Source of the DNA: a virus
Length of the DNA stretch: 64,000 nucleotides
IMG/VR virus record: IMGVR_UViG_3300045421_000501
Location: 32,001-96,000 of that record
Reading direction: 5' to 3' (one strand)
Position numbers and translations under genes: made by a program. Position 1 is the stretch's first letter. Every line of letters starts with the position of its first letter. The notes beneath the pieces are model-generated. The model made no database searches. It was not told the DNA's origin and was given only the letters and a program-made list of their open reading frames with translations. Of the stretch, positions 13,893 to 32,053 are shown piece after piece.

Positions 13893-13895
13893 TAT

Positions 13896-13975: not shown

Positions 13976-14010
13976 TGTATAAAAACCATATATAAAAATA
14001 AATATCTGCA

Positions 14011-14940: not shown

Positions 14941-15025
14941 GGAAAGGTGGCCGAGTGGTTTAAGGCAACAGTCTTGAAAACTGTCGAGGTGAAATCCTCC
15001 GTGAGTTCGAATCTCACTCTTTCCG
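14941..15025 (+). tRNA. tRNA-Ser(UGA)
   Basis: ACAGT-CTTGAAA-ACTGT; long variable arm. Confidence 0.92.
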
Positions 15026-15032
15026 TTTGCTC

Positions 15033-15061
15033 TTGACAACCGAGAGCATTTTTGCTATAAT
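15033..15061 (+). promoter_or_regulatory. Sigma70 promoter
   Basis: TTGACA-N17-TATAAT. Confidence 0.8.
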
Positions 15062-15085
15062 ACACGAGTAAACAAATTTTTAAAA

Positions 15086-15313: not shown

Positions 15314-15357
15314 ATAAATAATTTTTGGAATAATGTACAAAAATCCAGCCTTCACTA

Positions 15358-15579
15358 ATGACAAAAACAAGTATTCTTCGTTACTTGGGTAATATTCTTC
15401 TTATATTTGGATATTACATTATGTTATGGGGAAGTTTTAAAAATGGATTATTAATAAAATGTGTAGGAGGAATTATGACGTTTCCTTTTGCACTTAAATA
15501 TAAATTGTGGGATATGGTATTTCTATGTGTATTTTTTTCTAGCATAGAAATATCTAAACTCATATGTCTATTTTCCTAG
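15358..15579 (+). CDS. Small membrane protein
   Basis: Three hydrophobic segments; LRYLGN, KLWD. Confidence 0.6.
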   Translation: MTKTSILRYLGNILLIFGYYIMLWGSFKNGLLIKCVGGIMTFPFALKYKLWDMVFLCVFFSSIEISKLICLFS

Positions 15580-15712
15580 TTTATAAAAACTAGGTGGTGG
15601 AGTCAAATCGACCCATGTGCTCGTCGGATGCACAATAAATTATGCCGACTGGTGTGGATGAGGTAATCCCGCTTAGTTTCTTATTTCTAATTAAAAAATA
15701 AGTGGCGAGCAT
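15573..15712 (+). ncRNA. wcaG-like RNA motif (three UGGYG-containing structured units)
   Basis: UGGYG at 15595, 15650 and 15703, each after a paired region; lies 5' of an NAD-dependent epimerase as known wcaG RNAs do. Confidence 0.65.
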
Positions 15713-15762
15713 AATTGCAATTAATTTATTATAATATGTACAAATAATTTTTATTAAATAGT

Positions 15763-16821
15763 ATGTCAAATTATACTAAAACTGCATTAGTTCTTGGTGC
15801 AGGTGGTTTTATTGGAAGCCATATGGTAAAAAGACTTCGTTCAGAAGGATATTGGGTTCGTGGGGTTGATCTAAAACAACCAGAATTTTCTGAAACCGGA
15901 GCAAATGAATTTATTGTTGGAGATCTTAGAAATGTAGAATTTGTTTCTAGATGTATAAGATTTAAAGGAGATCAGGGAAATTTTTATCATCCAGTTCCAC
16001 ATCGATATCATCAAGCATTTGATGAAATTTATCAATTTGCTGCCGATATGGGTGGAGCAGGATTTGTTTTTACTGGAGAAAATGATGCTGACATTATGCA
16101 TAATTCAGTATCAATTAATCTAAATGTTCTAGAAGAACAGAAAAAATTTAATGATCAACTTGGCATGAATTTCACTAAAATTTTTTATAGTGGATCCGCA
16201 TGTATGTATCCAGAACATAATCAGTTAGATCCTGATAATCCTGATTGTCGTGAACAATCTGCATACCCAGCAAATCCAGATTCTGAATATGGATGGGAAA
16301 AACTGTTCTCGGAACGTCTTTACTTTGCTTATCATCGCAACTATGGTATTCCTGTACGTGTTGCTCGATATCATAATATATTCGGGCCAGAAGGGACCTG
16401 GAAAGGCGGAAGGGAAAAAGCACCCGCAGCAATCTGCCGTAAGGTAGCAGAACTTCCAGTATGTGGTGGTACTATTGAGGTATGGGGTGACGGAAAACAA
16501 ACTCGTTCTTTCCTTTATATCGATGAGTGTATTGAAGCAACTCGTAGATTAATGGACTCTGACTTCATTGGACCAGTGAATATTGGTTCCGAAGAAATGG
16601 TGACTATCAATCAACTTGTCGATATTGCTGCAAAGGTTGCGGGTAAACCAGTGCAAAAAATGCACAAGTTGGATGCTCCTCTTGGAGTTCGTGGTCGTAA
16701 TTCAAATAATGATTTAATCCGACAAAAATTGGGATGGGATTATTCACAAACACTTGAAGAAGGAATTCGAAAAACATATAATTGGATTCAAAATCAAATC
16801 TTAAATAATGTTTTTGAATAA
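15763..16821 (+). CDS. NAD-dependent epimerase, GDP-mannose 3,5-epimerase-like
   Basis: GAGGFIG, AADMGG, YGWEK, GGREKAPAAICRK. Confidence 0.9.
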   Translation: MSNYTKTALVLGAGGFIGSHMVKRLRSEGYWVRGVDLKQPEFSETGANEFIVGDLRNVEFVSRCIRFKGDQGNFYHPVPHRYHQAFDEIYQFAADMGGAGFVFTGENDADIMHNSVSINLNVLEEQKKFNDQLGMNFTKIFYSGSACMYPEHNQLDPDNPDCREQSAYPANPDSEYGWEKLFSERLYFAYHRNYGIPVRVARYHNIFGPEGTWKGGREKAPAAICRKVAELPVCGGTIEVWGDGKQTRSFLYIDECIEATRRLMDSDFIGPVNIGSEEMVTINQLVDIAAKVAGKPVQKMHKLDAPLGVRGRNSNNDLIRQKLGWDYSQTLEEGIRKTYNWIQNQILNNVFE

Positions 16822-16847
16822 TTAGTTGCGGATATTAATTGAATCAA

Positions 16848-17504
16848 ATGAATACACAGTACAATTTTGAAACGGATAAACTAAAGAATTTATTCAAAGA
16901 TTCTGATAAAATTGAAAAAAATTTTTCACAGGCTTATCAGGACCTTTTTGTTCTCACAATGTTGAATGGAAAAACTTCAGGAAAATATATTGAAATTGGT
17001 GGAAATAATCCTGTAGTTATTAATAATACATATTTACTTGAAAGTCAATTTAAGTGGAAAGGATTTTCTTTAGATATTGATGATTCTATGGCAAAAATTT
17101 ATAATTTAGTTAGGGCAAACAAATGTGAATGTTTTGATGCTACAAAGTTTGATTATAATAAAAAAATAAAATCATTGAAATGGAAGACAAATCAAATTGA
17201 TTATCTATCAGTTGATTGTGAACCTGCAATGACTACTTTTGCAGCTCTCAAAAAAATTCCACATGATGAATATAGATTTTCTGTAATTACATATGAGACG
17301 GATGTATATAAAGATGGAAATCAAGCAAAAGAATTATCAAGAAATTTTTTACAAAAATTGGGATATCAATTGGTATCTGCAGATGTCTGCAATGGAGGAA
17401 ATCCATATGAAGATTGGTATGTAGATCCTCAAATAGTAAGTGAAAATATTTGGAAAAGTTTTGAAAGCAATGGTGCAGAAGCTAGAATATTATTTGTAAA
17501 ATGA
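16848..17504 (+). CDS. FkbM-like SAM-dependent methyltransferase
   Basis: SQAYQD, YIEIG, NNTYLLE..WKG, IDYLSVDCE. Confidence 0.75.
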   Translation: MNTQYNFETDKLKNLFKDSDKIEKNFSQAYQDLFVLTMLNGKTSGKYIEIGGNNPVVINNTYLLESQFKWKGFSLDIDDSMAKIYNLVRANKCECFDATKFDYNKKIKSLKWKTNQIDYLSVDCEPAMTTFAALKKIPHDEYRFSVITYETDVYKDGNQAKELSRNFLQKLGYQLVSADVCNGGNPYEDWYVDPQIVSENIWKSFESNGAEARILFVK

Positions 17505-18280
17505 CACTTAAGATTTCTCATTGGTATGGTCGTCTTGGAAATAATATTCAACAATGTGCTGTTGGTATTATGGCTGCAGAATTGATTGGGGGAACATTTG
17601 AAAGTATAAATCATGATACAATTGATACAATTAATGTTTCTTTTGGTGATAATTCGCAAGATGCATTATCAAAATTTTTTTATTGGGAAGGATCAAATAA
17701 AGAAATCGATATTGATTCCGAATACGTTCGAAAAAATATACGAAGAATCTGCAAAAATCACATTTCAAAACGTCTTAAGATCCCTAAGCAAGAACTTTTT
17801 TCAGATAATACTATTGTTATTCATGTTCGTAGTGGCGATATTTTTAGCATTGAACATAAAGATGGTCATAATTACGTTCCTAATCCTTTGGATTATTATG
17901 AATCGTTAATTGATAAGTTTGATCAAGCAATTATTGTTACTGAAAATGATAATCACAATCCAATTGTAGAGATTTTGAAAAATAATTCAAAAGTAATAAT
18001 TCAGTCTTCTTCAATAGAAAATGATTTTGCAACTTTAATGTCGGCAAAGAATTTAGCTTCTTCTGGAGTAGGAACTTTTTGTGTTGCAGCAGCTTTGTGT
18101 TCAAATAATATTCGCAATTTTTATTGTACGGATTTAATGTTGACAGAACATTTAAATTATAGTATGATTGTTAATACTGATATAGAAGTATTTGTTTGCA
18201 ATTTGAAAAATTATATACCAATAGGTGAATGGAAAAACACAAATGAACAAAGAAAATTTATTTTGGAATATAAGATATGA
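17501..18280 (+). CDS. GT11-like (fucosyltransferase-fold) glycosyltransferase
   Basis: GRLGNN, IHVRSGD, GTF motif. Confidence 0.65.
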   Translation: MTLKISHWYGRLGNNIQQCAVGIMAAELIGGTFESINHDTIDTINVSFGDNSQDALSKFFYWEGSNKEIDIDSEYVRKNIRRICKNHISKRLKIPKQELFSDNTIVIHVRSGDIFSIEHKDGHNYVPNPLDYYESLIDKFDQAIIVTENDNHNPIVEILKNNSKVIIQSSSIENDFATLMSAKNLASSGVGTFCVAAALCSNNIRNFYCTDLMLTEHLNYSMIVNTDIEVFVCNLKNYIPIGEWKNTNEQRKFILEYKI

Positions 18281-19116
18281 AAATATTTGATTCTCTTCTT
18301 TTCTTCAATGAATTAGATTTATTGGAACTCAGAATGAATATTCTTGGGGATTATGTAGATTATTTTGTGATCAATGAAGCAAATGTTACATTTACTGGAA
18401 AAGAAAAACAATTATATTTTCAGGAAAATCGTCAAAGATTTAAAAAATGGGATGATAAAATAATACATAATGTGATTATAGATAATAATGATAATTTTGA
18501 AAATTATATTGACGGCAAATTATATCATCGACCATTGAAGGAAGATAACATATATAAACTTCCAATGCACTATCAAAGAGATGTTTTTCACAGAGACAGT
18601 TGCATCTATGGAATTTTGCAAGAAGCACAGGATGATGATATTATATTCACGAGTGATGCTGATGAAATTGCAAATCCGTTGGTTGTCGAAAGAATGGGTG
18701 ATTGGTTTGATCGAAGCAATCATTATGTAATGGTTGGCCCTTGTTATTATTATTACTTAAATGTTCAGGTAGAAGATAATTGGATGGGAACAAGAGTATG
18801 TACTTTAGAGCATCTTAAAACTACTAGTATAGATAAACTAAGGCAATCTCATAAAGATGCTTGGAAAATAATGAGTGGTGGGTGGCATTGGAGTTTTTTT
18901 GGTGGAGCTGATCGAGTTCGTGCTAAAATTGAAGCATACGCTCATCAAGAACATAATATAGAACAATTAAAAATGTCAATGGAAAGTAGAATCGAAAATA
19001 ATGAAGATCCTTGTGGTAGAGATTATTTTAAGCTAAGAACTGTTCCAATTGATAATAGTTTTCCGGAATATATTCAATATAATAAAAATAAACTTTTGCA
19101 ATATATTAAAAAATGA
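18277..19116 (+). CDS. GT17 (GnT-III-like) glycosyltransferase
   Basis: FFNELDLLELR, VDYFVINE, SDADEI, GGWHWSF. Confidence 0.85.
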   Translation: MKIFDSLLFFNELDLLELRMNILGDYVDYFVINEANVTFTGKEKQLYFQENRQRFKKWDDKIIHNVIIDNNDNFENYIDGKLYHRPLKEDNIYKLPMHYQRDVFHRDSCIYGILQEAQDDDIIFTSDADEIANPLVVERMGDWFDRSNHYVMVGPCYYYYLNVQVEDNWMGTRVCTLEHLKTTSIDKLRQSHKDAWKIMSGGWHWSFFGGADRVRAKIEAYAHQEHNIEQLKMSMESRIENNEDPCGRDYFKLRTVPIDNSFPEYIQYNKNKLLQYIKK

Positions 19117-20054
19117 ATTTTATTGAAGGTGTAGCAGTTTCAAATCTGTGTGATTATTCATTTGGAGATCAGGCTGGATGTTTGGGAAGAGTTCCTGGAG
19201 CATTCATGAAACAAGCTGATTTAGTCAATCAAGAATTTATTTCAATTTGCAATCAAAATATTGCAAAAGGAAAAAATTTGATGACTCTTTTTATTGATAA
19301 TATTCGATTATATAAAAGACAAATTAAAGCTTCTAATGAAAGGGATCAGAAATGGATTGATGCATTGCATGAAACAAATGATCTTTTAGAACTTTGTGGA
19401 AAGATTGAGAAAATAAATTTTATCATCTTCACAAATCTTGAAGACACACCAATCGATGAAACAATTCATAAAATAATTCCAGACAATGTAATTTCCATAC
19501 ATGCTGTAAATGCAATTTCTTTTGGTAAAAAAGTAATTCCTTTTCCATATGGATTACAAAGAATTTTAAATAATAGTGATAATAGAATTCCGATTATTAG
19601 TAATTTGATCGAAAAGGAAGTAACACCTAAAAAATTAGTTTATATTAATCACACCAAAGATACCAATTTAAGTGAACGTGGAGATATTAAAAAAATTCTT
19701 GGTAAACACAATTATGTTACTGTGGATGATCGAATTCCATTTGAGCAATATTGCAAACAAATACAAAATCATAAATTTATGATTTGTCCACAAGGAAATG
19801 GTGTAGATTGTCATCGAAATTGGGAAGTTCTTTATTTAAAAAGAGTTCCAATTATGAAAAAAACTGAATATCTTATGGAACTTTATAAGGAATATCCTGT
19901 TCTTTGGGTAGATGATTATTCAAAAATTACTAAAACATTATTAATAAATAATGATCATCTTTATGTAAGAGCGAAAAATATAGAAAATAATTTACTCGAT
20001 TTGTATTCGTTATTTAATAGGATTGTAAGAGATGGAAAAGATAAAATTAAATGA
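19113..20054 (+). CDS. Exostosin/GT47-like glycosyltransferase
   Basis: KFMICPQGNGVDCHRNWEVLYL..VPI. Confidence 0.7.
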   Translation: MNFIEGVAVSNLCDYSFGDQAGCLGRVPGAFMKQADLVNQEFISICNQNIAKGKNLMTLFIDNIRLYKRQIKASNERDQKWIDALHETNDLLELCGKIEKINFIIFTNLEDTPIDETIHKIIPDNVISIHAVNAISFGKKVIPFPYGLQRILNNSDNRIPIISNLIEKEVTPKKLVYINHTKDTNLSERGDIKKILGKHNYVTVDDRIPFEQYCKQIQNHKFMICPQGNGVDCHRNWEVLYLKRVPIMKKTEYLMELYKEYPVLWVDDYSKITKTLLINNDHLYVRAKNIENNLLDLYSLFNRIVRDGKDKIK

Positions 20055-20712
20055 TGTGACTTTATGCTGCATCTCTTCCGTAAAATTAGAAGAAACTGTA
20101 TATGCTCTAATAAAAAGTTGTGAGGGATTAGAATTTGCAGAAGCAAAACTCATCGGACATCAAAAACCAGATAACCTTCCAGACTATATTAAGTTTGAAG
20201 AAACATATCAGATAAAAAGTATTGACGATTATAGTTATTATTGCATCTATAATCTTACAAATCATATTCAAACAAGTCATTGTCTTTTGATTCAATCTGA
20301 TGGATATGTAATTCGTCCTTGGTTATGGAATGATTCGTGGATGCAATATGATTATATTGGAGCTCCTTGGCCGGATCGTCAAAAACAACAAGATGCTTTT
20401 ATTGATCCTTGGGGAAAAGCTCATAGAGTTGGAAATGGTGGATTTACTCTTCGAAGTAAAAAATTATTAGATGTTCCCAAACAAGCACACATTCAATTTG
20501 ATGTGAATTGGGGTAGATTTTATAAACACATGGGAGCAAAACTTACTGCAGAAGATGGAAATATTTGTGTTCATAATCGACATATATATGAAGTACTTGG
20601 ATGCAAATTTGCTCCAGTAGAAGTTGCATCTAAATTTTCCAGAGAACAAACTTTACCTGATAGTGAAGAAGACACCTTCGGGTTTCATTATTATTTTCAA
20701 GATATAAAATGA
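20032..20712 (+). CDS. DUF5672-like putative glycosyltransferase
   Basis: LLIQSDG, YDYIGAPW, VGNGGFTLRS, ED, FGFH. Confidence 0.75.
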   Translation: MEKIKLNDVTLCCISSVKLEETVYALIKSCEGLEFAEAKLIGHQKPDNLPDYIKFEETYQIKSIDDYSYYCIYNLTNHIQTSHCLLIQSDGYVIRPWLWNDSWMQYDYIGAPWPDRQKQQDAFIDPWGKAHRVGNGGFTLRSKKLLDVPKQAHIQFDVNWGRFYKHMGAKLTAEDGNICVHNRHIYEVLGCKFAPVEVASKFSREQTLPDSEEDTFGFHYYFQDIK

Positions 20713-21503
20713 AAGCATCAATTTATCAATTATGGTGGAATCCTTGGGGTGAAGAAGGATTAGATTTTAATAAAAACGTAAGTATATCTGTAGACAATCT
20801 TCAAAATAATTTTGATGCAGATTTAAAAATTTTATTTTTAGCAGAACCATATTCAATTGCACCTACAGTTAATGAAGGAGCATTAAATTCCTCAATATTT
20901 TTTGATAAAATATATACATTCAATCAAGCAATATTGAACGAATACCCTCAAGCAGAATTATTTCCTTGGGGATCTTCGTGGTTAGATTTTGACAATCTAA
21001 ATATTGAGAAGCAAGATGTAATAACATTTGTCACTAGTAATAAATCTCAAACATTGGGGCATAAACTTCGTTTAGATATTTTTGATTATTTGAATCCGAT
21101 AGATGAAATTAATGGAATGGAAATTTTTAGTCATATGTCTCCACCATTTCATCAAATTCGAAATGACTTTTTTTATAATGCAAAATTTCATATATGTGTA
21201 GAAAATTCGATTCAAAAAAATTATTTTACAGAAAAAATTATTGATTGTTTTGCAAGTAAAACTATTCCAATTTATTTTGGTTGCCCAAATTTAGGAGATT
21301 GGTTTAATATGAATGGAGTTTATCAATTTGAAAATCTAAAAGAATTAAATGATATTTTAGATTTATTGTCTCCAGATGTATATGAGAAAAAAATAAAAGC
21401 AATCGAAGAAAATTATGAAATTGCAAAACAATTTTATGGAGAAAATGACGTTGTACCCAGACTTACTAAAAAAATTACTGAATTTGTAAATCATGCCATT
21501 TAA
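20709..21503 (+). CDS. GT10 alpha-1,3-fucosyltransferase-like protein
   Basis: KFHICVENS..NYFTEKIIDCF...TIPIYFG. Confidence 0.85.
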   Translation: MKASIYQLWWNPWGEEGLDFNKNVSISVDNLQNNFDADLKILFLAEPYSIAPTVNEGALNSSIFFDKIYTFNQAILNEYPQAELFPWGSSWLDFDNLNIEKQDVITFVTSNKSQTLGHKLRLDIFDYLNPIDEINGMEIFSHMSPPFHQIRNDFFYNAKFHICVENSIQKNYFTEKIIDCFASKTIPIYFGCPNLGDWFNMNGVYQFENLKELNDILDLLSPDVYEKKIKAIEENYEIAKQFYGENDVVPRLTKKITEFVNHAI

Positions 21504-22170
21504 CGGATCAAATCAGACAAACTACATACAAAAAGATTATTCATTTCTAAGAATCAAACCCGAAGGAATGAAAAATTTAAAAACAAACTATTCACAAGTT
21601 TGGCAAGATATTTTTGCGTTGGTTGTAAATGATGCAAAACAAGAAGGTACGTTCATTGAAATTGGAGGAGGACAACCAAAAATTGGTAATAATACATGGC
21701 TTCTTGAAGAACAATATAATTGGAAAGGGTTTTCAATTGAACTTGATGATGAATTATGTTTGATGTGGGAAAATGCAGATCGAAAAAATACAAAAATATT
21801 TAAAGACAATGCACTTATTTTTGATTATGTCCATGCAGTTGAAGAATTAAAATTACCATACCATATGGATTATTTGTCATTTGATTTAGAACCACCAGAG
21901 ATAACATTGGAGTGTTTGAAAAAATTTCCTTTTGATAAATTGTCATTCAATTGTGTGACGTATGAGCATGATGCATATCGACAATGGGGAGATATTTATG
22001 CTCATCGAAATATATTTTTTGAAAATGGATATAGATTAGTTGGTGAAAATTTAAAGAATCGTGGATGTACTATGGAAGAATGGTTTCTTCATGAAGATGT
22101 TGATTCTCAAATTTATAGTAAACTGTATAGTGAAGATTGCGAAGCGTATGAATTGTTATTGGACTTATGA
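21493..22170 (+). CDS. FkbM-like SAM-dependent methyltransferase (paralogue of 16848)
   Basis: SQVWQD, FIEIG, NNTWLLE..WKG, DYLSFDLEP, TYEHD. Confidence 0.75.
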   Translation: MPFNGSNQTNYIQKDYSFLRIKPEGMKNLKTNYSQVWQDIFALVVNDAKQEGTFIEIGGGQPKIGNNTWLLEEQYNWKGFSIELDDELCLMWENADRKNTKIFKDNALIFDYVHAVEELKLPYHMDYLSFDLEPPEITLECLKKFPFDKLSFNCVTYEHDAYRQWGDIYAHRNIFFENGYRLVGENLKNRGCTMEEWFLHEDVDSQIYSKLYSEDCEAYELLLDL

Positions 22171-22859
22171 CAAGAATCAGTTTTTGTATTCCTTGCTATG
22201 AAGCCCATGGTAAAGGATATAATTATCTACTTGATGTTTTTTATGCATTAAATAATCAAGTATTCAAGGACTTTAATGTATGGATTTCCGATCAAAGTAA
22301 AGACGATAAAGTATATCAAGCATGTGAAGAATATGCAGATTGCTTTGAAATTAATTATATTAAATATCAAGAAAATATTGGCAATGTTTCTGCAAATACA
22401 AATAATGCAATCAAGTATGCTGACGGCGAAATTTTAAAAATTCATTATCAAGATGATTTTATTCTTACAGAAAATCTTACTTTTGAACTTGACAAAGTAT
22501 TTGTTAATGATGTAGAATGGGCAGTAAGTTGTTTTGCACATTCTATTGATGATGGTAGAACACATTATAATGCTAAAACTCCATACTGGAATGATAAAAT
22601 TTTAGAAGGAGTGAATACATTTAGTTCTCCATCCATACTTGCAATGAGAAAAGATTTGAAAGTATATTTTGATCAAAATATTACATTACTTTTGGATTGT
22701 GATATGTTTTATCAGTTGTATATCAAATATGGAGAACCTATAATAATGACAGATGTTCATATTTCAAATCGTGAACATGCAAATCAAACACAAAGAAAAG
22801 TTGAACATTTATTATCAACCGAGATTGAATATTTAAAGAGGAAATATGATAGGATTTAA
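22167..22859 (+). CDS. GT2 glycosyltransferase
   Basis: ISFCIPCY, ISDQS, QDD. Confidence 0.85.
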   Translation: MTRISFCIPCYEAHGKGYNYLLDVFYALNNQVFKDFNVWISDQSKDDKVYQACEEYADCFEINYIKYQENIGNVSANTNNAIKYADGEILKIHYQDDFILTENLTFELDKVFVNDVEWAVSCFAHSIDDGRTHYNAKTPYWNDKILEGVNTFSSPSILAMRKDLKVYFDQNITLLLDCDMFYQLYIKYGEPIIMTDVHISNREHANQTQRKVEHLLSTEIEYLKRKYDRI

Positions 22860-23628
22860 TCATCTAGGTCGTCATGGGAGACTTGGAAATCAAATGTTTC
22901 AGTACGCTGGACTCATGGGAATTGCAGATCATAATGATTATGAATTTGCAATTCCACCTAGTAATTTTCAAGATCCTTGGAATGATCATCAATTATTTGA
23001 GGCATTTAAACTTACAAGTTTAGTCAATATTAAATTTGTAGATGGTCCATATGTTCAGGAAAAAACATTTTCGTTTGATGAGGATTTATTTAATACTATT
23101 CCCGACAATCACAATGTTTTTGGATATCTTCAAACTGCGAAATATTTTTACCATATTCAAAGTGAAGTAAGAGAAAATTTTAAATTTAAAAATGATATTC
23201 TTGGACCATGTGAAGATATGATTCAAAGTGTAGAAAATCCAATTGCATTACACGTTCGTCGAGGAGATTATATTTCAAATTCGGACAATCATCCCCCTTG
23301 TCCGAAAGAGTATTATGATGAAGCATTAAAAAAATTTGATAATAATCGAAATGTGATTGTATTTTCTGATGATCCAGAATGGTGTAGTCGGGAATTTACT
23401 GAGGATAGATTTTTGATATCTGAGGGAGGAGACAATCTTGCAGATCTTTGTATGATGAGTTTATGTGAAGATTTTATTATTGCAAATTCATCATTTTCCT
23501 GGTGGGGATCATGGTTATCTGAAAATGAAAAGAAAAAAATTATTGCACCCAGTCGTTGGTTCGGTAGTGGTTACACTTCGTCTCACGACATTTCTGATCT
23601 CTATTGCTCAAATTGGGAGGTAATCTAA
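22846..23628 (+). CDS. GT11 alpha-1,2-fucosyltransferase-like protein
   Basis: GRLGNQMFQYA, HVRRGDY, FSDD, IIANSSFSWWG. Confidence 0.92.
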   Translation: MIGFNHLGRHGRLGNQMFQYAGLMGIADHNDYEFAIPPSNFQDPWNDHQLFEAFKLTSLVNIKFVDGPYVQEKTFSFDEDLFNTIPDNHNVFGYLQTAKYFYHIQSEVRENFKFKNDILGPCEDMIQSVENPIALHVRRGDYISNSDNHPPCPKEYYDEALKKFDNNRNVIVFSDDPEWCSREFTEDRFLISEGGDNLADLCMMSLCEDFIIANSSFSWWGSWLSENEKKKIIAPSRWFGSGYTSSHDISDLYCSNWEVI

Positions 23629-24525
23629 ATGAAAAATAATGATCTTGAAATATTGGAACAAAACTGGATGCCCTTGGAAGATGTTACTTTTTTAATTCCA
23701 TTGAGAATTGAAAGTCAAGATAGAATGCGTAATATTATCACAACGATGATTTATTTGCTTCGAAATTTTAATACCAATGTCATGATAAAAGAATATGACA
23801 TGGAGCAAATCTTTATGCAATCTGCTTTTCCTACAATTGAAGATGCAGTTGGAGATAAAGTAAAAAATATTAATTATATTTTTGAGAAAACTGATGAATT
23901 TATTTTTCATCGAACACGACTTCTCAATGATATGATTCAAAATGCAGAAACTCCAATCGTAGTCAATTATGATAGTGATGTTCTTCTTCCAAAGGAGACA
24001 TATTTACATGCAAGGCATCTTATTTTGAATGGATATACTAATCCAGAACAACCAAATATAAAACCGGAACCAATTAAAGTTGTTTATCCGTATGGTTATG
24101 GAAATTTTCAGTTTCAAATAAGTGCCACAGATGAAGAAGTTACTAATTTTATAAACAGTAATTTTAATTTTACTGCATTTACAAGCATGAGGCAGTATGA
24201 TGCAAAGTTTGGATTCTGTCAATTTTTTGATCGAGAAGAATATATTCGATTTGGAATGGAAAATGAGAACTTTGTATCCTATGGATATGAAGATGATGAA
24301 AGATATAATCGATTTAATACACTTTCTCATGTTGCTCGAATCAATGATTATGTTTATCATTTGGAGCATGTAAGAACTCAAAATTCTTGGTTTAATAATC
24401 CACATATTGAATCAAATAGATTTCTTTGGGAAAAATTAAAAATTCTTCCCAAAGAAAATATAATTGAGTATTATAATAATCAGAAATATTTAATTGATAG
24501 GGGTGTTATTTGTGGACAAAAATAA
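23629..24525 (+). CDS. Glycosyltransferase with GT7 C-terminal-like domain
   Basis: DSD motif, GMENENFVSYGYEDDER, YHLEH. Confidence 0.75.
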   Translation: MKNNDLEILEQNWMPLEDVTFLIPLRIESQDRMRNIITTMIYLLRNFNTNVMIKEYDMEQIFMQSAFPTIEDAVGDKVKNINYIFEKTDEFIFHRTRLLNDMIQNAETPIVVNYDSDVLLPKETYLHARHLILNGYTNPEQPNIKPEPIKVVYPYGYGNFQFQISATDEEVTNFINSNFNFTAFTSMRQYDAKFGFCQFFDREEYIRFGMENENFVSYGYEDDERYNRFNTLSHVARINDYVYHLEHVRTQNSWFNNPHIESNRFLWEKLKILPKENIIEYYNNQKYLIDRGVICGQK

Positions 24526-25327
24526 AGCATCCTACAAACTAAAAGGATTTCCAAAATGCTTATGGATTAATTTAAATCGTTGTGTTCAAAGAAAGGAATA
24601 CATGGAAAATCAATTCAAGTATTGGGAAATCTATGATCATGTAAGAATTTCTGGTATTGATGGTAAGGAAGATGATCCAACTTCATATTTAAAAGGAAGT
24701 GTACCTCACAATATGAATAACGGTGAAATTGGTTGTGTTTTATCTCATTTGAATGCAATTAAATATTTTGTTGAGAAAACAGATCTCAATGAAATCATGA
24801 TTATGGAAGATGATTTGGATATGAATACTGTTAAGTATTGGAATTTTACTTGGAGTGATGTAAGATCAAAATTACCAATTAATTTTGATACTTGTCAGTT
24901 TACAATTATCAATCCAAATGGAATAACATTGAAATTGCACCAACGGTTTATTAATGATTTTTCTGCTGCATGTTATTTAATTACAAGACATCATGCAATA
25001 AAAATAATGAAATTGCATAATAGAGGAAATCAATGGAAAATTGATCAAAACATTCGACCAAGAGCAGTATCCGAAGATCTAATTTTGGATAGTGGAAAGG
25101 GGTATTCTACTCCACTTTTTAACTATAGATTAGACTTAGGATCTGCAATTCACGAAGAGCATATTGATATTTTTCATAAGGATAGTGGAAATGCTTTAGA
25201 TGAATTTTGGAAAATGAATGGACAGGATCAAAACATTTCTCAAATTATGGAATTAGATGAATATTGTGGTAGAATACCACCACAGGTTTATATAAATCAA
25301 GCAAATTTAGAGAAACAAAACTCATGA
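24512..25327 (+). CDS. GT25 glycosyltransferase
   Basis: WINLNR...R, GEIGCVLSH, IMEDD, SAACYLI. Confidence 0.85.
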   Translation: MDKNKASYKLKGFPKCLWINLNRCVQRKEYMENQFKYWEIYDHVRISGIDGKEDDPTSYLKGSVPHNMNNGEIGCVLSHLNAIKYFVEKTDLNEIMIMEDDLDMNTVKYWNFTWSDVRSKLPINFDTCQFTIINPNGITLKLHQRFINDFSAACYLITRHHAIKIMKLHNRGNQWKIDQNIRPRAVSEDLILDSGKGYSTPLFNYRLDLGSAIHEEHIDIFHKDSGNALDEFWKMNGQDQNISQIMELDEYCGRIPPQVYINQANLEKQNS

Positions 25328-26025
25328 AAATTATAGATCATATTGGAATATTTGAAAACTTTGCAAATGAAAACTTTTGCAAAGAACTAATTACTATTTT
25401 TGAATATTGGTTTGAACGAAAATATACATTACAGGAGAATGTAAATTCTCATATAACAGAAGAAAGAAAAGTGAGTTTATTTAATGAAGGTATTACTCAG
25501 TTTCCTGGGAAATCCCTTGGTAGAAAAGATGTTCAATTTTATTTGGAAACAATGGACATTCAAATGGCAATGAATGTTAATGGTATAGTTGGACAAGCCT
25601 TTGAGCAATACATTTCAGAATATCCAGGATTACTAAAAAATGCAGATCCAGTTTCATCCTGGACTACTAAAATACAAAAAACTAATTCTGGTGGAGGGTA
25701 TCATACATGGCATTGCGAGAATGGTGATTTTGGATATCGGGATAGAGTTTTGACTTGGATGATTTATCTAAATGATATTCCTCATGAAAATGGTGGAGCA
25801 ACAGAATTTTTTCATCAAAAACTATCCATTCAACCTAGTGTAGGAACACTAGTTCTTTGGCCTGCATGTTATACTCATATGCATCGAGGTGGATTTTTGA
25901 CTGGAGATATTTCTAAATATATTGCTACCGGATGGTTTCTTCGAGAACCGGGACAAGTTTTTAATAAAAGAATGGGAGAAGAATGTGGACAAATACAACC
26001 TCAAAAATTTGATTTGAATGAATAA
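25324..26025 (+). CDS. 2OG-Fe(II) oxygenase
   Basis: YHTWHCE, WMIYLND, GGATEF, THMHRG, KYIATGW. Confidence 0.9.
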   Translation: MKIIDHIGIFENFANENFCKELITIFEYWFERKYTLQENVNSHITEERKVSLFNEGITQFPGKSLGRKDVQFYLETMDIQMAMNVNGIVGQAFEQYISEYPGLLKNADPVSSWTTKIQKTNSGGGYHTWHCENGDFGYRDRVLTWMIYLNDIPHENGGATEFFHQKLSIQPSVGTLVLWPACYTHMHRGGFLTGDISKYIATGWFLREPGQVFNKRMGEECGQIQPQKFDLNE

Positions 26026-27445
26026 TATTTTTGTAGGAATAGGTGATGCACTTCACGATACCAGTATTTGTGCATTGATTGATGGTGAATTTAAGTATCG
26101 AAAATCTGAAAGATACTTTGGAGTAAAGCATCACGAAGCTAAAAGTCAATGGTATGCAAATACTTTAAATGATTGGAATATAACCAAAGTTGATAAATTG
26201 GTTTACACTCATAAAGGTGGAATTGGAAGGGGTAGAAAACCATATGATGGAGAAGAATTTTTGGTCAACGAATCCTTCCCCCATATAAAATGCAATGATA
26301 CAATATGTTTAGATCACCATATTGCTCATATGTTTAGCACATTATCAAGTGCTAAACAACATGCGGTATTTGATGGAAAAGGATCTGGATCAAAGGCAAA
26401 AGGAAGATTTACTGGATTAATAAAAACTGAAACAAAATTTCAAAGATATAAAAAAATGGGTGCTGGAAGATATTTACAATATCTTGGAACAGTATTAAAT
26501 TTTTCTGGATTGGAAATAGATTTCCCCGGAAAAATTATGGGATTGCAATCATATGGAGTTCCTGATTTAAATCTGGCATCTCAAATTAACGAAGAGAATA
26601 TTCTTGATTTTATTGAACCTTGGGTAAGAAAAATACCAAAAAGTACTGATAAAGATTTTCAGAATTTTGTTGCAACTGTACATAAGGCATGTGAACTTCA
26701 GCAATTAGAATATTTTAAAGAGTTTGATTCGAATGAACTAATTGCATGTTCTGGTGGAGTAATGTTAAACACTGTAATTAATACGGAACTTCGAAAAAAA
26801 TATAATCTTTATATTCCACCACATGTATATGATGGAGGATTGTCAATTGGATGTCTTAATTATATTGTAAAGAATTTAAATATTCCAAACTTTCCTTTTA
26901 TTCAGGATGATGAAAGACCATTAGAAAATCCATCAGATGATACAATTGAATTCATTGCAGAAAAACTTGCACTTGGTAAAATTATTGGATGGTATCAGGG
27001 AAATGGTGAGATTGGACCAAGAGCACTTGGCAATCGTAGTATTTTGATGAGTCCTTTAGTTAAAAATGGAAAGGAAATTCTCAATCAAAAAGTAAAAAAA
27101 AGAGAATGGTGGAGACCTTTTGGTGCTTCGGTAATCAAAGAAAAAGCACATGAATATTTTGATATTGATAATAATCCATATATGCTATATAATAGTAAAG
27201 TATTAGTCGATGAACTATATTCAATTACTCATGTTGATGGTACTTGTAGACATCAAACAGTAACTTCCGATCATAAATTTTATTATAAACTCTTAGAAAA
27301 ATTTGAAGAAAAAACTGGTTTGCCAATACTGTTAAATACATCATTGAATATTGGGGGAAAACCAATTTCATCCAAACTGGAAAATGCACATGTTCCTGGA
27401 TTAGATATACTTTGTTGTGGTAATGAAATACATTCTTATAGCTAA
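26018..27445 (+). CDS. O-carbamoyltransferase (NodU/CmcH family)
   Basis: HD, SER, DHHIAH, DGKG, GKIMGL, GPRALGNRS, HVDGTCR, LLNTSLN. Confidence 0.92.
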   Translation: MNNIFVGIGDALHDTSICALIDGEFKYRKSERYFGVKHHEAKSQWYANTLNDWNITKVDKLVYTHKGGIGRGRKPYDGEEFLVNESFPHIKCNDTICLDHHIAHMFSTLSSAKQHAVFDGKGSGSKAKGRFTGLIKTETKFQRYKKMGAGRYLQYLGTVLNFSGLEIDFPGKIMGLQSYGVPDLNLASQINEENILDFIEPWVRKIPKSTDKDFQNFVATVHKACELQQLEYFKEFDSNELIACSGGVMLNTVINTELRKKYNLYIPPHVYDGGLSIGCLNYIVKNLNIPNFPFIQDDERPLENPSDDTIEFIAEKLALGKIIGWYQGNGEIGPRALGNRSILMSPLVKNGKEILNQKVKKREWWRPFGASVIKEKAHEYFDIDNNPYMLYNSKVLVDELYSITHVDGTCRHQTVTSDHKFYYKLLEKFEEKTGLPILLNTSLNIGGKPISSKLENAHVPGLDILCCGNEIHSYS

Positions 27446-27459
27446 ATGTAAAAAATTAT

Positions 27460-29133
27460 ATGATAATTTATAGTTGTATTACAAATCAGTATGATAATAT
27501 ATCGAATGATCATTATTATGATCCAGAAGTTCGTTATGTCATGTTTCATGATGGAACCATTGAAAAAAAAGGTTCATGGGAATTTATAGAACTTGATATT
27601 GATGAAAATTCACATACAAAAAAATCATATCATCCAAAACATCTACCACATTTATATTTTGACTATGGTGAATGCACTGTTTGGATTGATGGTTGCTATA
27701 TTATAACTGAAGATTTTGTAAATTTTTCAAAAAAAATATTTGAAACCCATAATTTAGTACTACAAAATCATCCATCAAAACGAACTTTAGTTGAAGAATT
27801 TGCAAAACTTTATTATCGTGGATTTGTAGATGAGGAGAAGTGTTATGAATTGGCTGAAAAAATTTATAACAGTGGATATAAATGTTGGATGTATGATCAA
27901 ACTATCAATTGTTGTGTATGGAGAAAAATAAATAAAGAAGTTATTGATTGGAATAATTCTTGGCATAAGTGGTTTATTTTCGGTGATATAAGAGATCAAA
28001 TAGCAAGTTCCTTGGCAGATTATGAAACATTTTCCAGCCATAAAATTGAATTAATTGTAGATTTAAATCATACAACTAGGAATAAAAAATATTCACAATC
28101 ATATGAACTATTAGAACATTCAGATCTTCAACACTTAAAAGTCTTTATTTCAAATATTTCAAATAAATTAGTTACTAATTCAAAATTATCTTTTCATTCA
28201 AATAAAGTTCTTGATGAGAATGAAAATAAATTATACAATTCAGAAATTAAAGTAGTTCCAATTGATAAAAATGAAAATAAATTATACAATTCAGAAATTG
28301 AAGTAGTTCCAATTAATAAAAATGAAATGATAATATACTCTTGTATTACAAATGGATATGATGAAATTCCAGATCATTATTATGATCCAGAAGTTCGTTA
28401 TGTCATGTTTCATGATGGAACGATTGAAAAAAAAGATCCATGGGAATTTATAGATATTCGAGATTATTGTGATCTAGAATGTCCTCTCAGATTATCTAAT
28501 TATCCCAAAACCAATCCACATTTATTTTTTGAAGAAGGATCTAATACAATTTGGATTGATGGTTGTTATGTAATGACAGAAGAATTTGTCAAAGTCTCTA
28601 AAAAAACTTTTCCATTTACAATTCTTAGGCATCCATTTAAATTTTCTTATTACGATGAAATGCTGGAAGGATTTTTATCTGCTTTTTTTTCTTTTGATGA
28701 TGGAATTGAGTTCACAAAATTATTATTCGATGATAACTATAACTTCAAGCAATATAGTAGTCCTTTGTGTACTATTGTTTATAGAACAACAAATTCAGAA
28801 AATCAAAAATTTAATGAGTGTTGGTGGAAATATTCACTCATAGGACCAAATCGAGATCAAGTTGCTTTTGATGCAGCTATTCAATTCACTAATGTCTTCC
28901 CAAATTATATTGAAAAGAGAAATGATTGTGGAATAATTTTAGGGTCTGGATCTAAAATTGGAAGAAAGAAAAAACATGAACAAAGAGGAAAAATTTCTCA
29001 GTGGAAAATGAAACAAAACTTTATTGATGAAATGCGGAAATATGCTAAATTACATCCACATTTTTATGCAAAACATGATCATTATGATATGATGATCAAT
29101 AATAATATTATATCTTCGGATAAATCATTATGA
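27460..29133 (+). CDS. Tandem two-domain DUF616-like putative glycosyltransferase
   Basis: Two copies of IYSCITN.YD, WIDG, HP, RDQ. Confidence 0.7.
   Translation: MIIYSCITNQYDNISNDHYYDPEVRYVMFHDGTIEKKGSWEFIELDIDENSHTKKSYHPKHLPHLYFDYGECTVWIDGCYIITEDFVNFSKKIFETHNLVLQNHPSKRTLVEEFAKLYYRGFVDEEKCYELAEKIYNSGYKCWMYDQTINCCVWRKINKEVIDWNNSWHKWFIFGDIRDQIASSLADYETFSSHKIELIVDLNHTTRNKKYSQSYELLEHSDLQHLKVFISNISNKLVTNSKLSFHSNKVLDENENKLYNSEIKVVPIDKNENKLYNSEIEVVPINKNEMIIYSCITNGYDEIPDHYYDPEVRYVMFHDGTIEKKDPWEFIDIRDYCDLECPLRLSNYPKTNPHLFFEEGSNTIWIDGCYVMTEEFVKVSKKTFPFTILRHPFKFSYYDEMLEGFLSAFFSFDDGIEFTKLLFDDNYNFKQYSSPLCTIVYRTTNSENQKFNECWWKYSLIGPNRDQVAFDAAIQFTNVFPNYIEKRNDCGIILGSGSKIGRKKKHEQRGKISQWKMKQNFIDEMRKYAKLHPHFYAKHDHYDMMINNNIISSDKSL
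28219..28320 (+). repeat. 51-bp tandem repeat x2 (NENKLYNSEI.VVPI.K linker)
   Basis: 28219-28269 and 28270-28320 differ at 2 positions. Confidence 0.9.
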
Positions 29134-29324
29134 TAATATACTCTTGTATTACAAATGGATATGATGAAATTCCAGATCATTATTATGATCCAGAAGTTCG
29201 TTATGTCATGTTTCATGATGGAACGATTGAAAAAAAAGGTCCATGGGAATTTATAGATATTCGAGATTATTGTGATCTAGAATGTCCTAAAAGATTATCT
29301 TCTTATCCCAAAATCAATCCACAT
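28327..29324 (+). repeat. ~195-bp near-identical direct repeats (28327-28521, 29130-29324); partial third copy at 27508-27590
   Basis: Sequences visibly identical except for a few substitutions. Confidence 0.9.
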
Positions 29325-29957
29325 AAGTTTTTTTCTGAGGGTGAAGATACTGTTTGGATTGATGGTTGTTATGTTCAAACTCAAGAATGGGTAAATTTAT
29401 CAAAAGAAATATTTAAAAAAAATAAATTTACTCATATTCGACATCCTCTAAAATTTAACTTTATTGAAGAAGCGATTGAGAAATATGTGGGATCTTTTAG
29501 TACTAGAGAAGACATACTCGAAATTTGTAATTTATTGAAAGAAAAAAATTATAATTTTTATAAGTATTCTAGTCCAATTTTATGCTGCATTTGGAGAACA
29601 ATCACCGAAGAAATGAATATTTTTCATGATACTTGGTGGGAATATTCTTTAATTGGACTAAATCGAGATCAAATTTCTTTTGATTATGCTAAACAAAAAC
29701 ATAATTTGAATTGGCAAATTATTGAAGACTGGCTTTCTGTGGGAGTGGATTGGTCTCGTGTAACTGGGAAATTGGCAAGAAAAAAAATACATCCGCAAAA
29801 AGGAGATCTTGAGCAATATTTAAGAAAAGAAGAAATGCTTTCTGAAATATCTAAAATAACAAAAATGCCTTGGAAATTATATTTGAAACATGATTTTTCT
29901 ATATCTATTTATAGATGGGTAACTAATCCAGAACTTCCGAGATCAACTTCGAAGTAG
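29130..29957 (+). CDS. DUF616-like putative glycosyltransferase
   Basis: IYSCITNGYD, WIDG, RHP, RDQISF. Confidence 0.7.
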   Translation: MIIYSCITNGYDEIPDHYYDPEVRYVMFHDGTIEKKGPWEFIDIRDYCDLECPKRLSSYPKINPHKFFSEGEDTVWIDGCYVQTQEWVNLSKEIFKKNKFTHIRHPLKFNFIEEAIEKYVGSFSTREDILEICNLLKEKNYNFYKYSSPILCCIWRTITEEMNIFHDTWWEYSLIGLNRDQISFDYAKQKHNLNWQIIEDWLSVGVDWSRVTGKLARKKIHPQKGDLEQYLRKEEMLSEISKITKMPWKLYLKHDFSISIYRWVTNPELPRSTSK

Positions 29958-29971
29958 AGTATTTATGCTTA

Positions 29972-30005
29972 TTGACATGTATTCCAAAATACATTATACT
30001 AAATA
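29972..30005 (+). promoter_or_regulatory. psbA sigma70 promoter with overlapping late-type CTAAATA
   Basis: TTGACA-N17-TATACT, continuing as CTAAATA. Confidence 0.75.
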
Positions 30006-30032
30006 TTGTTAAGAAATCAAAACATTTCTTAC

Positions 30033-30156
30033 TCACTCCCGCTAACCGAGACCTATGGGAGTCTAAATACGTCCCTTATACCTATGCAGGAGGGTTGCAT
30101 AGGAATACTTGTACCGTTCAGCACCTCCTGGACTAATTTACTACCCATTTAATTAA
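30033..30156 (+). ncRNA. PhotoRC-II-like structured psbA leader
   Basis: ACCGAGACCTAT core; stems ACTCCC/GGGAGT and CCTATGCA/TGCATAGG in the psbA 5' UTR. Confidence 0.6.
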
Positions 30157-32053
30157 ATGACTGCTACAATTGCTTTACAAAAACAATCTAATCCATGGAA
30201 TCAATTCTGCGATTGGATTACTTCTACCAATAACCGCCTTTATGTGGGTTGGTTTGGTACTCTGATGATTCCTACTCTTCTTGCAGCAACGATTTGTTTC
30301 ATCATCGCCTTCGTTGGCGCACCCCCGGTGGACATTGATGGTATTAGGGAACCAGTTGCTGGTTCTCTTATGTGGGGCAACAACATCATCTCTGGTGCTG
30401 TTGTTCCTTCTAGCAACGCAATCGGATTGCATCTATACAATATTTGGGATGCAGCAAGTCTTGATGAGTGGCTTTATAAATAATATTGGGTCACTTTAAA
30501 TCGGGTGAACTGCTGGAAAGCTAAGTTCTCTTATGAAACACAAACATCATCTTACTCCAAAATATCTTGGTGGGTCTGACGAACCACAAAATCTTGTAGA
30601 GGTTTCTCCAACACAACACGCTATGTTTCATTATTGCAACTGGCGTCTTTGGGAAAATAAAGAAGATATGATTGCTTGGAAAGCACTTGCAGGGTATTCT
30701 TCAAAAGAAGAAATAATCCAACAAGTTATTTCTCTTGCAGGTAAGAAGGGTGGTAAGGTTGCAAAAGAAAGCGGACAACTTCGTGCTGCTGCTCTTAAAC
30801 AACCTAAAAGTGTTAGGCAGAAAATTGGTAAAAACCTTATCAACTTTGCCTACAAAAATCCAAAAAATGCAACACAAGAAACTCTAACTAATAGAAAGTA
30901 TAAGAAAGTATTTCACATTTACGAAAAACTAACTGAACGGTCTATTGGTAAACATCTTGGAAATGTTGAGTTTAATCCAGAACAAGATAAAACACTTAAA
31001 ACTGTTTGTTCTATGATACTGGAAAAGTATGGGGTAAAAGTTTATCCTTCACATCTTAATAGTGTTGCTAACGGAAATAGACTTTTAACGAGTGGTATTT
31101 CTTGCAGTTGGGTTTTAGAGAATACGCCAATCAGCAGCCAAGCCACAGACGATACTTCTGTGGAAGGTTCAGAGACTAGTCGGTTCAACAAGCGTGTTGA
31201 GTAATACGACATTAGCGCCCGACACCTTATGAAGATAATAGGGTGAAGATATAGTCCAGTCCATATGGAAACATATGGTTCCCCCGACTGCTATAATGGG
31301 GGTCCTTATCAACTCGTCGTCTTCCACTTTCTTATCGGCATCTTCTGCTATATGGGTCGTGAGTGGGAACTATCTTACCGACTGGGTATGAGACCCTGGA
31401 TTTGTGTTGCTTACTCTGCACCTGTTGCTGCTGCTAGTGCGGTATTCCTTGTTTATCCTTTCGGTCAGGGTTCCTTCTCAGACGGTATGCCCCTGGGCAT
31501 CTCCGGCACCTTCAATTACATGTTGGTGTTCCAGGCTGAGCACAACATTTTGATGCACCCCTTCCACATGCTTGGTGTGGCTGGTGTGTTCGGCGGCAGC
31601 CTGTTCTCCGCCATGCACGGTTCACTGGTTACCTCTTCCTTAGTGCGTGAAACCACCGAGAGCGAGAGCCAGAACTACGGCTACAAGTTCGGTCAAGAGG
31701 AAGAAACTTATAACATTGTTGCTGCTCACGGTTATTTTGGAAGACTTATTTTCCAATATGCATCATTCAACAACTCTCGTTCACTTCACTTCTTCCTTGC
31801 TGCTTGGCCTGTAGTTGGCATCTGGTTCACTGCTTTAGGTGTTTCTACAATGGCTTTTAATCTCAATGGACTGAATTTTAATCAGAGTATTCTGGATAAT
31901 CAGGGTCATGTTATTAAAACTTGGGCAGATATTTTAAATTCTGCTGGACTTGGGCTCGAAGTAATGCACGAAAGAAACGCACATAATTTTCCTTTGGATC
32001 TAGCCGCAGCAGAGACAACTATGGTTGCCTTGACTGCTCCTGCCATCGGATAA
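30157..32053 (+). CDS. psbA: Photosystem II D1 protein; exons 30157-30473 and 31291-32053, 359 aa spliced
   Basis: Unmistakable D1 sequence; joining TGG CT|C TAT AAT GGG restores EWLYNGGPY and gives 1080 nt. Confidence 0.97.
30474..31290 (+). mobile_element. Group I self-splicing intron (817 nt) in psbA
   Basis: Exon ends in U paired with G of IGS GGTCACTT; P AACTGCTGGAAA, Q AATCAGCAG, R GTTCAGAGACTA, S AAGATATAGTCC; terminal G. Confidence 0.93.
30533..31204 (+). CDS. Intron-encoded HNH homing endonuclease
   Basis: [32 protein letters not shown]-terminal HNH motif. Confidence 0.85.
   Translation: MKHKHHLTPKYLGGSDEPQNLVEVSPTQHAMFHYCNWRLWENKEDMIAWKALAGYSSKEEIIQQVISLAGKKGGKVAKESGQLRAAALKQPKSVRQKIGKNLINFAYKNPKNATQETLTNRKYKKVFHIYEKLTERSIGKHLGNVEFNPEQDKTLKTVCSMILEKYGVKVYPSHLNSVANGNRLLTSGISCSWVLENTPISSQATDDTSVEGSETSRFNKRVE

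Follow-up and report, generated by a model that had tools for sequence, protein, structure and literature searches.

A large part of the marine Prochlorococcus and Synechococcus population falls victim to cyanomyophages, in whose genomes big sugar islands have been noted since 2005; the field has gone as far as asking whether these islands are "stuffer" DNA. P-SSM2 (2005) carries 24 "LPS" (lipopolysaccharide) genes in two clusters (PMC1079782); in larger cyanophage genomes such clusters lie near tRNA and hli genes, and their functionality has been questioned (Sullivan et al. 2010, PMC3037559). GDP-mannose 3,5-epimerase (GME), fucosyltransferases and a wcaG RNA are annotated in S-SCSM1 (PMC9602691), and S-SCSM2R has 22 such genes, 13 of them for glycosyltransferases (PMC12801897). 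Here we describe an island of this kind at positions 15763-29957 (+) of a 64,000-nucleotide window, bases 32001-96000 of the 114-kb IMG/VR viral contig IMGVR_UViG_3300045421_000501 (completeness about 60% by CheckV). The source genome is an uncultured, divergent T4-like cyanomyovirus, an assignment based on a class Ia ribonucleotide reductase and T4-type baseplate and tail proteins encoded on the contig, 12 tRNA genes, psbA and a tail protein only 31-37% identical to its counterparts in S-SRM01, S-SKS1 and P-SSM2. From its sequence, we consider the locus very probably a functional, vertically inherited glycan-assembly island, one of the cyanomyophage "LPS / cell-wall synthesis" islands.

This kind of island is already known in cyanomyophages, and the present one shares with those of P-SSM2, S-SSM7, S-SM2, S-SCSM1, S-SCSM2R and S-B05 a T4-like cyanophage background and a one-strand epimerase/glycosyltransferase cluster beside tRNA and photosynthesis genes, the nine-tRNA cluster at its 5' side matching the published siting of LPS clusters near tRNA genes. 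The same GME-type epimerase recurs at 75-84% identity, together with homologues of the glycosyltransferase (GT) families GT11, GT25, GT17 and GT2, of DUF5672 and of phrog_15655; island proteins match cyanophage PHROGs 2644, 15655, 2835 and 1601, and wcaG RNA has been reported in such phages (PMC2864571, PMC9602691). As in P-SSM2, there is also a smaller second sugar cluster elsewhere in the genome. Compared with the S-B05 island (about 17 kb), amino-acid identities are 83% for the epimerase g01, 29% for g04, 43% for g06, 32% for g09, 46% for g10 and 47% for both g11 and g12; a megablast of the island against cultured phages returned nothing beyond one 62-nt match. There are also differences. 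Genes g02-g08 belong to no PHROG family, no counterpart of the three DUF616 domains occurs in the part of S-B05 that was compared, and only in the source genome does a carbamoyltransferase lie within the island; the lineage-specific content is the FkbM paralogues, the three DUF616 domains and the in-island carbamoyltransferase. Unlike in S-SCSM1, the epimerase is not accompanied by GDP-fucose synthesis genes (GMD, fcl), the sole other SDR match on the contig belonging to the separate cluster, and the rhamnose-type module found between wcaG RNA and epimerase in S-B05 and many relatives is absent here.

The island consists of 16 consecutive open reading frames (ORFs) of 218-557 aa on one strand, one more than the 15 counted in an earlier note on this DNA that was made from the sequence alone. 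The note's description of mostly overlapping or abutting genes holds for 13 of the 15 junctions, of which 12 are overlaps and one is an exact abutment; the other two are short gaps, and spacing over all 15 ranges between -32 and +17 nt. Of the island, 99.7% is coding. Sixteen open frames of at least 200 aa are not expected of DNA with 30% GC: none appeared in 200 shuffles, in which the longest frame reached 196 aa. GC per gene (26-37%) is like that of the rest of the window. After correction by homologue alignments and local sequence, the likely starts of g02 and g12 are ATG 16848 and GTG 24512 rather than the upstream TTGs. Inside the island, sigma-70-like sites (107 in a consensus scan, versus 105.6 in shuffled sequence) and terminator-like sites both occur at chance level.

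To place the island among its relatives, we compared 80 IMG/VR epimerase loci, drawn from at least 597 contigs that encode a g01 homologue at 75-87% identity; many cultured Synechococcus and Prochlorococcus myophages encode one as well. At least eight other viral contigs (L170, L171, L174, L177, L180, L187, L194 and L195) have g01-g13 and the DUF616 genes in unchanged order, with amino-acid identities of 58-83%, so the synteny check suggested in the earlier note came out in favour of a conserved island. This lineage was recovered by an alignment-based DUF616 scan, whereas a scan of viral contigs with the single g15 sequence found no match. One of these contigs, 172 kb long (G001), is collinear with the source genome, its ribonucleotide reductase being 78% and its tail protein 47% identical. 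The kept gene order argues for a functional island, and because the island is no more variable within the lineage than the structural genes, the comparison also argues for purifying selection on every island gene. A 15-16-gene order conserved through a whole uncultured lineage is an argument for function.

Beyond this lineage the gene content 3' of the epimerase is mosaic. Across the 80 loci, each of the 376 homologue matches shares the strand of the epimerase gene. In the 50 loci with at least 8 kb of downstream sequence, the epimerase is followed by a fucosyltransferase-superfamily gene in 45 cases and by GT11 in 40. An epimerase with a fucosyltransferase-type enzyme is therefore the recurrent conserved core, and the recurring pairing suggests that the epimerase product is the substrate of those transferases. 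From this core one would expect a rare L-sugar (L-galactose or L-gulose) that could serve as a chemical marker of these islands. Among DUF616 loci, GT25 and oxygenase genes are present in 66/80 and 77/80, respectively. The carbamoyltransferase gene g14 sits between g13 and g15 in the source genome alone; relatives have a homologue of 34-45% identity 7-10 kb downstream. New here are the island order conserved through an uncultured lineage, the epimerase-fucosyltransferase core and an all-soluble enzyme set without export genes. The earlier note had considered a pathway of this size more typical of giant viruses, a view contradicted for this phage group by the 80 loci, in which the same epimerase heads co-oriented transferase clusters, and by the islands published for cultured cyanomyophages.

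The first gene encodes a GME that looks catalytically intact. Over residues 10-346, g01 matches the GME structures 2c59 and 8sg0 with E values of 3e-82 to 3e-80, the next SDR following at 1e-21. Its C147, Y176, K180 and K219 align with C145, Y174, K178 and K217 of Arabidopsis GME, an acid-base pair (Cys145/Lys217) and a redox pair (Tyr174/Lys178), so all four catalytic residues are kept. We considered a host origin of the epimerase and rejected it: the 80 best cellular matches are 61-71% identical, none carries a cyanobacterium label, and a quick tree (short search; SH-aLRT 84) has the phage epimerases together on a single side of one branch, apart from the cellular copies. Three contigs of nominally cellular metagenome-assembled or single-amplified genomes (L086, L087 and L088, labelled Bifidobacterium breve, Pelagibacteraceae and Actinomycetota) encode epimerases 69-71% identical to the phage's that join the phage clade (SH-aLRT 99); these sequences may be phage-derived or mis-binned.

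Pfam, PHROG and PDB searches essentially uphold the family list given in the earlier note: GME, GT10, GT11, GT17, GT2, GT25, DUF5672, three DUF616 domains, a 2-oxoglutarate (2OG)-dependent oxygenase and a carbamoyltransferase. Four proteins (g02, g03, g08 and g15) have no direct Pfam match and were assigned through paralogy and relatives. Of the two GT11 enzymes claimed, g10 is found directly by Pfam, and g03 is GT11-like through profile-profile alignment (hhalign probability 94.5%, E 8e-8) and its GRLGNN and HVRSGD motifs; the g03-family profile gave no significant match to PDB sequences. Similarly, the two claimed FkbM methyltransferases are better called FkbM-like: Methyltransf_21 (FkbM, PF05050) is matched by 7/12 family members (best E 4.6e-5), the g02 model, at a predicted local distance difference test (pLDDT) score of 88, matches only class I S-adenosylmethionine (SAM) methyltransferase folds, and the family profile of g02 and g08 had no significant match among PDB sequences. 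The GT7-like label of g11 is weak, with Pfam GT7C at E 1e-3, below cut-off, and g05, once called GT47-like, instead weakly resembles RXYLT1_C and GT61; g05 is conserved in 13 related loci. Searched against NCBIfam, none of the 16 proteins reached an equivalog-level match, and g13 had no significant sequence match in the PDB. The carbamoyltransferase g14 matches TobZ residues 402-548, the C-terminal domain, at E 2e-33. With the ENS..YFTEK, HxRxGD and DxD motifs and the GME residues kept and the predicted folds confident, the island enzymes look active.

Three DUF616 domains close the island. For g15 we found 1256 relatives; TOD1_MUCI70 (formerly DUF616) is matched by 30/40 representatives of the g15/g16 family, and the g16 model (pLDDT 88.5) has a GT-A fold; among viral proteins, the model is matched best by the DUF616 proteins from Tetraselmis virus 1, a Cellulophaga phage and Indivirus. 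An 83-nt stretch (27508-27590, 28372-28454 and 29175-29257) is 96-98% identical among all three domains, whose proteins are overall only 46-55% identical, and the g15 linker contains a 51-bp tandem duplication (28211-28312); together these point to recent gene conversion or duplication.

Table 1. Features of the island and its flanks, in window coordinates
Feature	Position	Strand	Evidence or remark
Nine-tRNA cluster (Arg, Pro, Ile, Ala, Asn, Thr, Gly, Leu, Ser)	12770-15025		directly 5' of island
Consensus sigma-70-type promoter, TTGACA-17-TATAAT with TG	15033..15061	+	12/12 match
s1, small conserved ORF, 75 aa	15086..15313	+	homologues 5' of island in >50 related loci
s2, small conserved hydrophobic ORF, 73 aa	15358..15579	+	about 3 hydrophobic segments
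wcaG RNA (Rfam RF01761), structured leader	15615..15716	+	ends 46 nt before g01
g01 GDP-mannose 3,5-epimerase (GME)	15763..16821	+	PDB 2c59 E 3e-82
g02 FkbM-like SAM methyltransferase	16848..17504 (alternative start TTG 16839)	+	paralogue of g08, predicted fold
g03 GT11-like, fucosyltransferase superfamily	17501..18280	+	hhalign to GT11 family
g04 GT17 glycosyltransferase	18277..19116	+	Pfam PF04724 E 5e-26; DAD motif
g05 putative glycosyltransferase, weakly RXYLT1_C/GT61-like	19113..20054	+	Pfam 3e-4 and 0.015, both below cut-off
g06 DUF5672, putative glycosyltransferase	20032..20712	+	Pfam PF18922 E 3e-19
g07 GT10 alpha-1,3-fucosyltransferase-type	20709..21503	+	Pfam PF00852 E 2e-8; ENS...YFTEK motif
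g08 second FkbM-like methyltransferase	21493..22170	+	36% identical to g02, E 9e-39
g09 GT2 glycosyltransferase, short, soluble, 230 aa	22167..22859	+	Pfam PF00535 E 2e-9
g10 GT11 alpha-1,2-fucosyltransferase-type	22846..23628	+	PF01531 E 1e-30; phrog_2644 E 6e-102; HVRRGD
g11 phrog_15655 cyanophage family, weakly GT7C-like, putative glycosyltransferase	23629..24525	+	phrog E 6e-92
g12 GT25 glycosyltransferase	24512..25327 (alternative TTG 24494)	+	PF01755 E 6e-12; phrog_2835 E 1e-96; DLD
g13 2OG-Fe(II) oxygenase, prolyl/lysyl-hydroxylase-type domain	25324..26025	+	PF13640 (2OG-FeII_Oxy_3) E 3e-11; phrog_61; HxE...H
g14 O-carbamoyltransferase, NodU/CmcH/TobZ family	26018..27445	+	Carbam_trans_C E 6e-50; phrog_1601 E 9e-124
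g15 two tandem DUF616 (TOD1/MUCI70) GT-A-like domains	27460..29133	+	both halves match g16
g16 single DUF616 (TOD1/MUCI70) GT-A-like domain	29130..29957	+	Pfam E 1.6e-4, just above cut-off
PhotoRC-II RNA	30023-30116		precedes psbA; 71 bits
psbA	start ~30157		directly 3' of island
Group I intron splitting psbA	30925-31278		Rfam match

Upstream of the island lies a structured leader that the earlier note had missed, a wcaG RNA that scores 69.0 bits (gathering score 42; E 1e-10) and covers model positions 1-98 of 98. Using a covariance model built from 24 wcaG instances, we found exactly one wcaG RNA in 59 of the 80 epimerase-containing loci, always on the epimerase strand and always upstream, at 150 nt or less from the epimerase for 38 copies and at 0.5-5.6 kb for the other 21. 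In the loci checked, the spacer holds further nucleotide-sugar genes (TagD-, RmlB-, RmlC- and RmlD-like); in L047, a close relative, it holds a cupin, an RmlB-like gene, an SDR and a 438-aa ORF. Because the RNA occurs as a single upstream copy with more nucleotide-sugar genes in the spacer, it is a marker of the sugar island's 5' edge. The wcaG motif was tied to exopolysaccharide-type genes in marine cyanophages as a riboswitch candidate whose ligand is not known (Weinberg et al. 2010, PMC2864571). The present copy agrees with that description: it is a full-length, above-gathering match, comes from a marine cyanophage and precedes an exopolysaccharide-type nucleotide-sugar gene. It differs in that no terminator-promoter hairpin, as seen in 42/80 relatives, stands between the RNA and the abutting epimerase gene. 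The leader is thus a candidate orphan riboswitch.

The hairpin found in those 42 relatives (for example L002, L006, L007, L010 and L011) is a composite element at most 100 nt before the epimerase, and 38 of the 42 have both of its promoter-like hexamers. In the window, the composite element instead stands just past tRNA-Ser, at 15028-15061, and none lies between the wcaG RNA and g01. It combines a GC-rich hairpin and T-run, terminator-like in form, with a -35-like TTGACA/TTTACA in the loop and a -10-like hexamer just after, and the consensus promoter at 15033 sits inside it. This promoter is the likely start of the transcript entering the island. The late motif TATAAATA was found nowhere on the + strand from 13091 to 30475; from this and the sigma-70 consensus match we infer early transcription by the host polymerase. 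Between promoter and leader lie the two small ORFs, neither of which matched a Pfam family. The end of s2 is 20-42 nt before the wcaG RNA in 27/28 loci having both, and s2 is missing from 31/59 wcaG-RNA loci.

We propose that the island is read as one translationally coupled message, running through the two small ORFs and the wcaG leader, and that unmodified host RNA polymerase probably transcribes it from the promoter at 15033. No 19-residue hydrophobic segment occurs in any of the 16 island proteins, which are all predicted to be soluble, so assembly would be cytoplasmic. The GT10 enzyme g07, the GT11 enzyme g10 and the GT11-like g03 would transfer the epimerase-derived L-sugar or host GDP-L-fucose. 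Seven more transferase-like proteins (GT17, GT2, GT25, DUF5672, g05, g11 and the three DUF616 domains) would extend a non-repeating hetero-oligosaccharide, the 2OG oxygenase would hydroxylate the acceptor or a sugar, and the two FkbM-like methyltransferases and the carbamoyltransferase would cap hydroxyls. Some 12 transferase-like domains with no polymerase would fit a long non-repeating oligosaccharide with methyl and carbamoyl caps.

The earlier note had the phage building its own methylated, carbamoylated oligosaccharide by a near-complete pathway. Enzyme set, motifs and gene order fit such a product: the set could make a methylated, carbamoylated hetero-oligosaccharide, probably one containing an L-sugar. 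What was overstated is the completeness. The 114-kb contig has no gene for GDP-mannose synthesis (ManC-type nucleotidyltransferase), so the glycan would draw on host GDP-mannose and other host nucleotide sugars. Nor does it encode any polytopic membrane protein (at least 4 hydrophobic segments) except psbA, and hence no initiating transferase, flippase, polymerase or exporter; the hallmarks of Wzx/Wzy- or ABC-transporter-dependent O-antigen or capsule synthesis (initiating phosphoglycosyltransferase, flippase, polymerase, ABC exporter) are accordingly absent from it. The host must then supply the substrate and, for a surface glycan, export.

Several points weigh against this account. The functions of this island and of its homologues are predictions from sequence, and family membership does not reveal donor-sugar specificity. 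Among sequencing runs listed as containing the island, none is an RNA run, which counts neither for nor against its expression. Pfam scores of g05, g11 and g16 are weak or sub-threshold, and the early-promoter call rests on the consensus scan that found no island-wide excess over shuffled sequence. At about 60% completeness of the contig, genes for export, initiation and GDP-mannose synthesis may lie elsewhere in the genome, and cyanophage LPS clusters have been viewed as possible "stuffer DNA" (Sullivan et al. 2010, PMC3037559).

The island alone does not reveal the acceptor of the glycan; its practical value is as a guide to experiments on cultured relatives, the phage itself being uncultured. 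As acceptor we favour, at somewhat less than an even chance, a host envelope glycolipid (an LPS core or a structure like lipo-oligosaccharide, LOS) assembled on the inner face and carried outward by the export machinery of the host. This is plausible because GT10, GT11 and GT25 enzymes act on bacterial lipo-oligosaccharide, the promoter looks early, and the host envelope is the usual target in the literature on such islands (PMC1079782, PMC2984593). Bacterial LOS outer-core loci, such as those for the Lewis-antigen fucosyltransferases of Helicobacter and the GT25 galactosyltransferases of Haemophilus and Neisseria, use the same CAZy families and likewise rely on soluble or peripheral enzymes that work on the cytoplasmic side, with neither a flippase nor a polymerase dedicated to them. 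The source island differs from them in being phage-borne and adding methyl and carbamoyl tailoring, and its epimerase points to L-galactose or L-gulose, not fucose.

Chloroviruses and some mycobacteriophages glycosylate their own structural proteins, and virion proteins are a tentative but substantial second candidate here. The soluble enzymes would then glycosylate phage fibres, capsid or decoration proteins in the cytoplasm, and the glycan would shield or tune the particle surface. The lack of membrane segments in the 16 proteins and of lipid-carrier initiation or export genes on the contig speaks for this, as does the number of transferase-like domains without a polymerase, which suits a long non-repeating glycan. 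The multi-domain g15 and the methyltransferases presumably parallel the soluble glycosylation machinery of chloroviruses. Coupling of the GT25 gene to a prolyl/lysyl-hydroxylase-type oxygenase recalls hydroxylysine glycosylation, although no collagen-like Gly-X-Y repeats, possible acceptors of a hydroxylase and GT25, were found in the contig. Chloroviruses and other giant viruses also resemble the island in encoding their own GDP-sugar metabolism, methyltransferases and soluble transferases, among them a multi-domain enzyme, and giant-virus proteins are among the closest viral fold matches of the DUF616 domain, with fold relatives in Tetraselmis virus 1, Indivirus and Fadolivirus. They differ in that the island is bacteriophage-borne, with the capsid as acceptor only a candidate, and its enzymes are not orthologues of chlorovirus enzymes, no such match appearing in any search.

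Promoter type and position count against a virion acceptor: the T4-type late promoter motif is missing from the island and from the sequence before it, the closest strong promoter resembles sigma-70 sites, suggesting early expression, and the island is not beside structural genes in the source genome. We also found no report of glycosylated cyanophage virions in the literature. Ser/Thr-rich fibre-like ORFs do lie just outside the window, by the second sugar cluster, and are candidate glycan acceptors. These two ORFs (723 and 213 aa; 96619-99469 (+) of the source contig G000, L085:619-3469) reach 50% Ser+Thr per 40-aa window, and the C-terminal 75 aa of the longer one match cyanophage "virion structural proteins". 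The second cluster itself (101192-104927 (-), L085:5192-8927, also outside the window) encodes a 4,6-dehydratase-type SDR, a DegT-family aminotransferase, a 232-aa unknown, a CTP_transf_3 cytidylyltransferase and a 159-aa unknown, and may be a partial amino-sugar or nonulosonic-acid-type pathway. A more specific version, in which an L-galactose-containing, methyl/carbamoyl-capped glycan is placed on virion proteins in chlorovirus-like self-glycosylation while the wcaG RNA acts as a nucleotide-sugar riboswitch setting island expression, we regard as improbable though worth stating; if true, it would bring chlorovirus-like self-glycosylation to a bacteriophage of the ocean's main primary producers.

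The small remaining share of probability falls to DNA or a soluble product as acceptor. T-even phages glycosylate their own DNA, and decoration of modified phage bases against host restriction would suit enzymes that are all cytoplasmic. Such DNA hypermodification was raised as a possibility by the S-SCSM2R authors for the 13 glycosyltransferases of that phage (PMC12801897). For the present island we judge it very unlikely: no thymidylate-synthase-like (PF00303) or dCMP-hydroxymethylase gene occurs on the 114-kb, about 60% complete contig, the T4 alpha- and beta-glucosyltransferase families have no match among the 16 proteins, and GT10, GT11, GT17 and GT25 enzymes act on glycans. To our knowledge, ten transferases also far exceed the needs of any known DNA modification. 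A Nod-factor-like product, which the carbamoyl, methyl and fucosyl functions might recall, was rejected as well, since a processive GT2 of the chitin-synthase type is lacking, g09 being soluble and just 230 aa long. Least credible of all is that the island is non-functional cargo, "stuffer" DNA or a freshly captured host cluster without a role in infection, a possibility raised for cyanophage LPS clusters (Sullivan et al. 2010, PMC3037559) and in keeping with island content that varies between phage lineages, against which stand 16 intact coupled ORFs where shuffled DNA gives no comparable frame, gene order kept at 58-83% identity among relatives whose tail protein is 47% identical, intact catalytic residues, a conserved structured leader, genome-like GC and phage epimerases split from cellular ones with no cyanobacterium among the 80 best cellular matches.

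The flanks of the island hold further features. On the 5' side, between the ribonucleotide reductase and the tRNA cluster, lie a Peptidase_C39-like cysteine protease (10118-10804) and a phage tail lysozyme-domain protein (11651-12310). On the 3' side, GC rises to 42% over the psbA region (30023-32053), and an ORF at 30533-31204 lies within or overlaps the region of the psbA group I intron.

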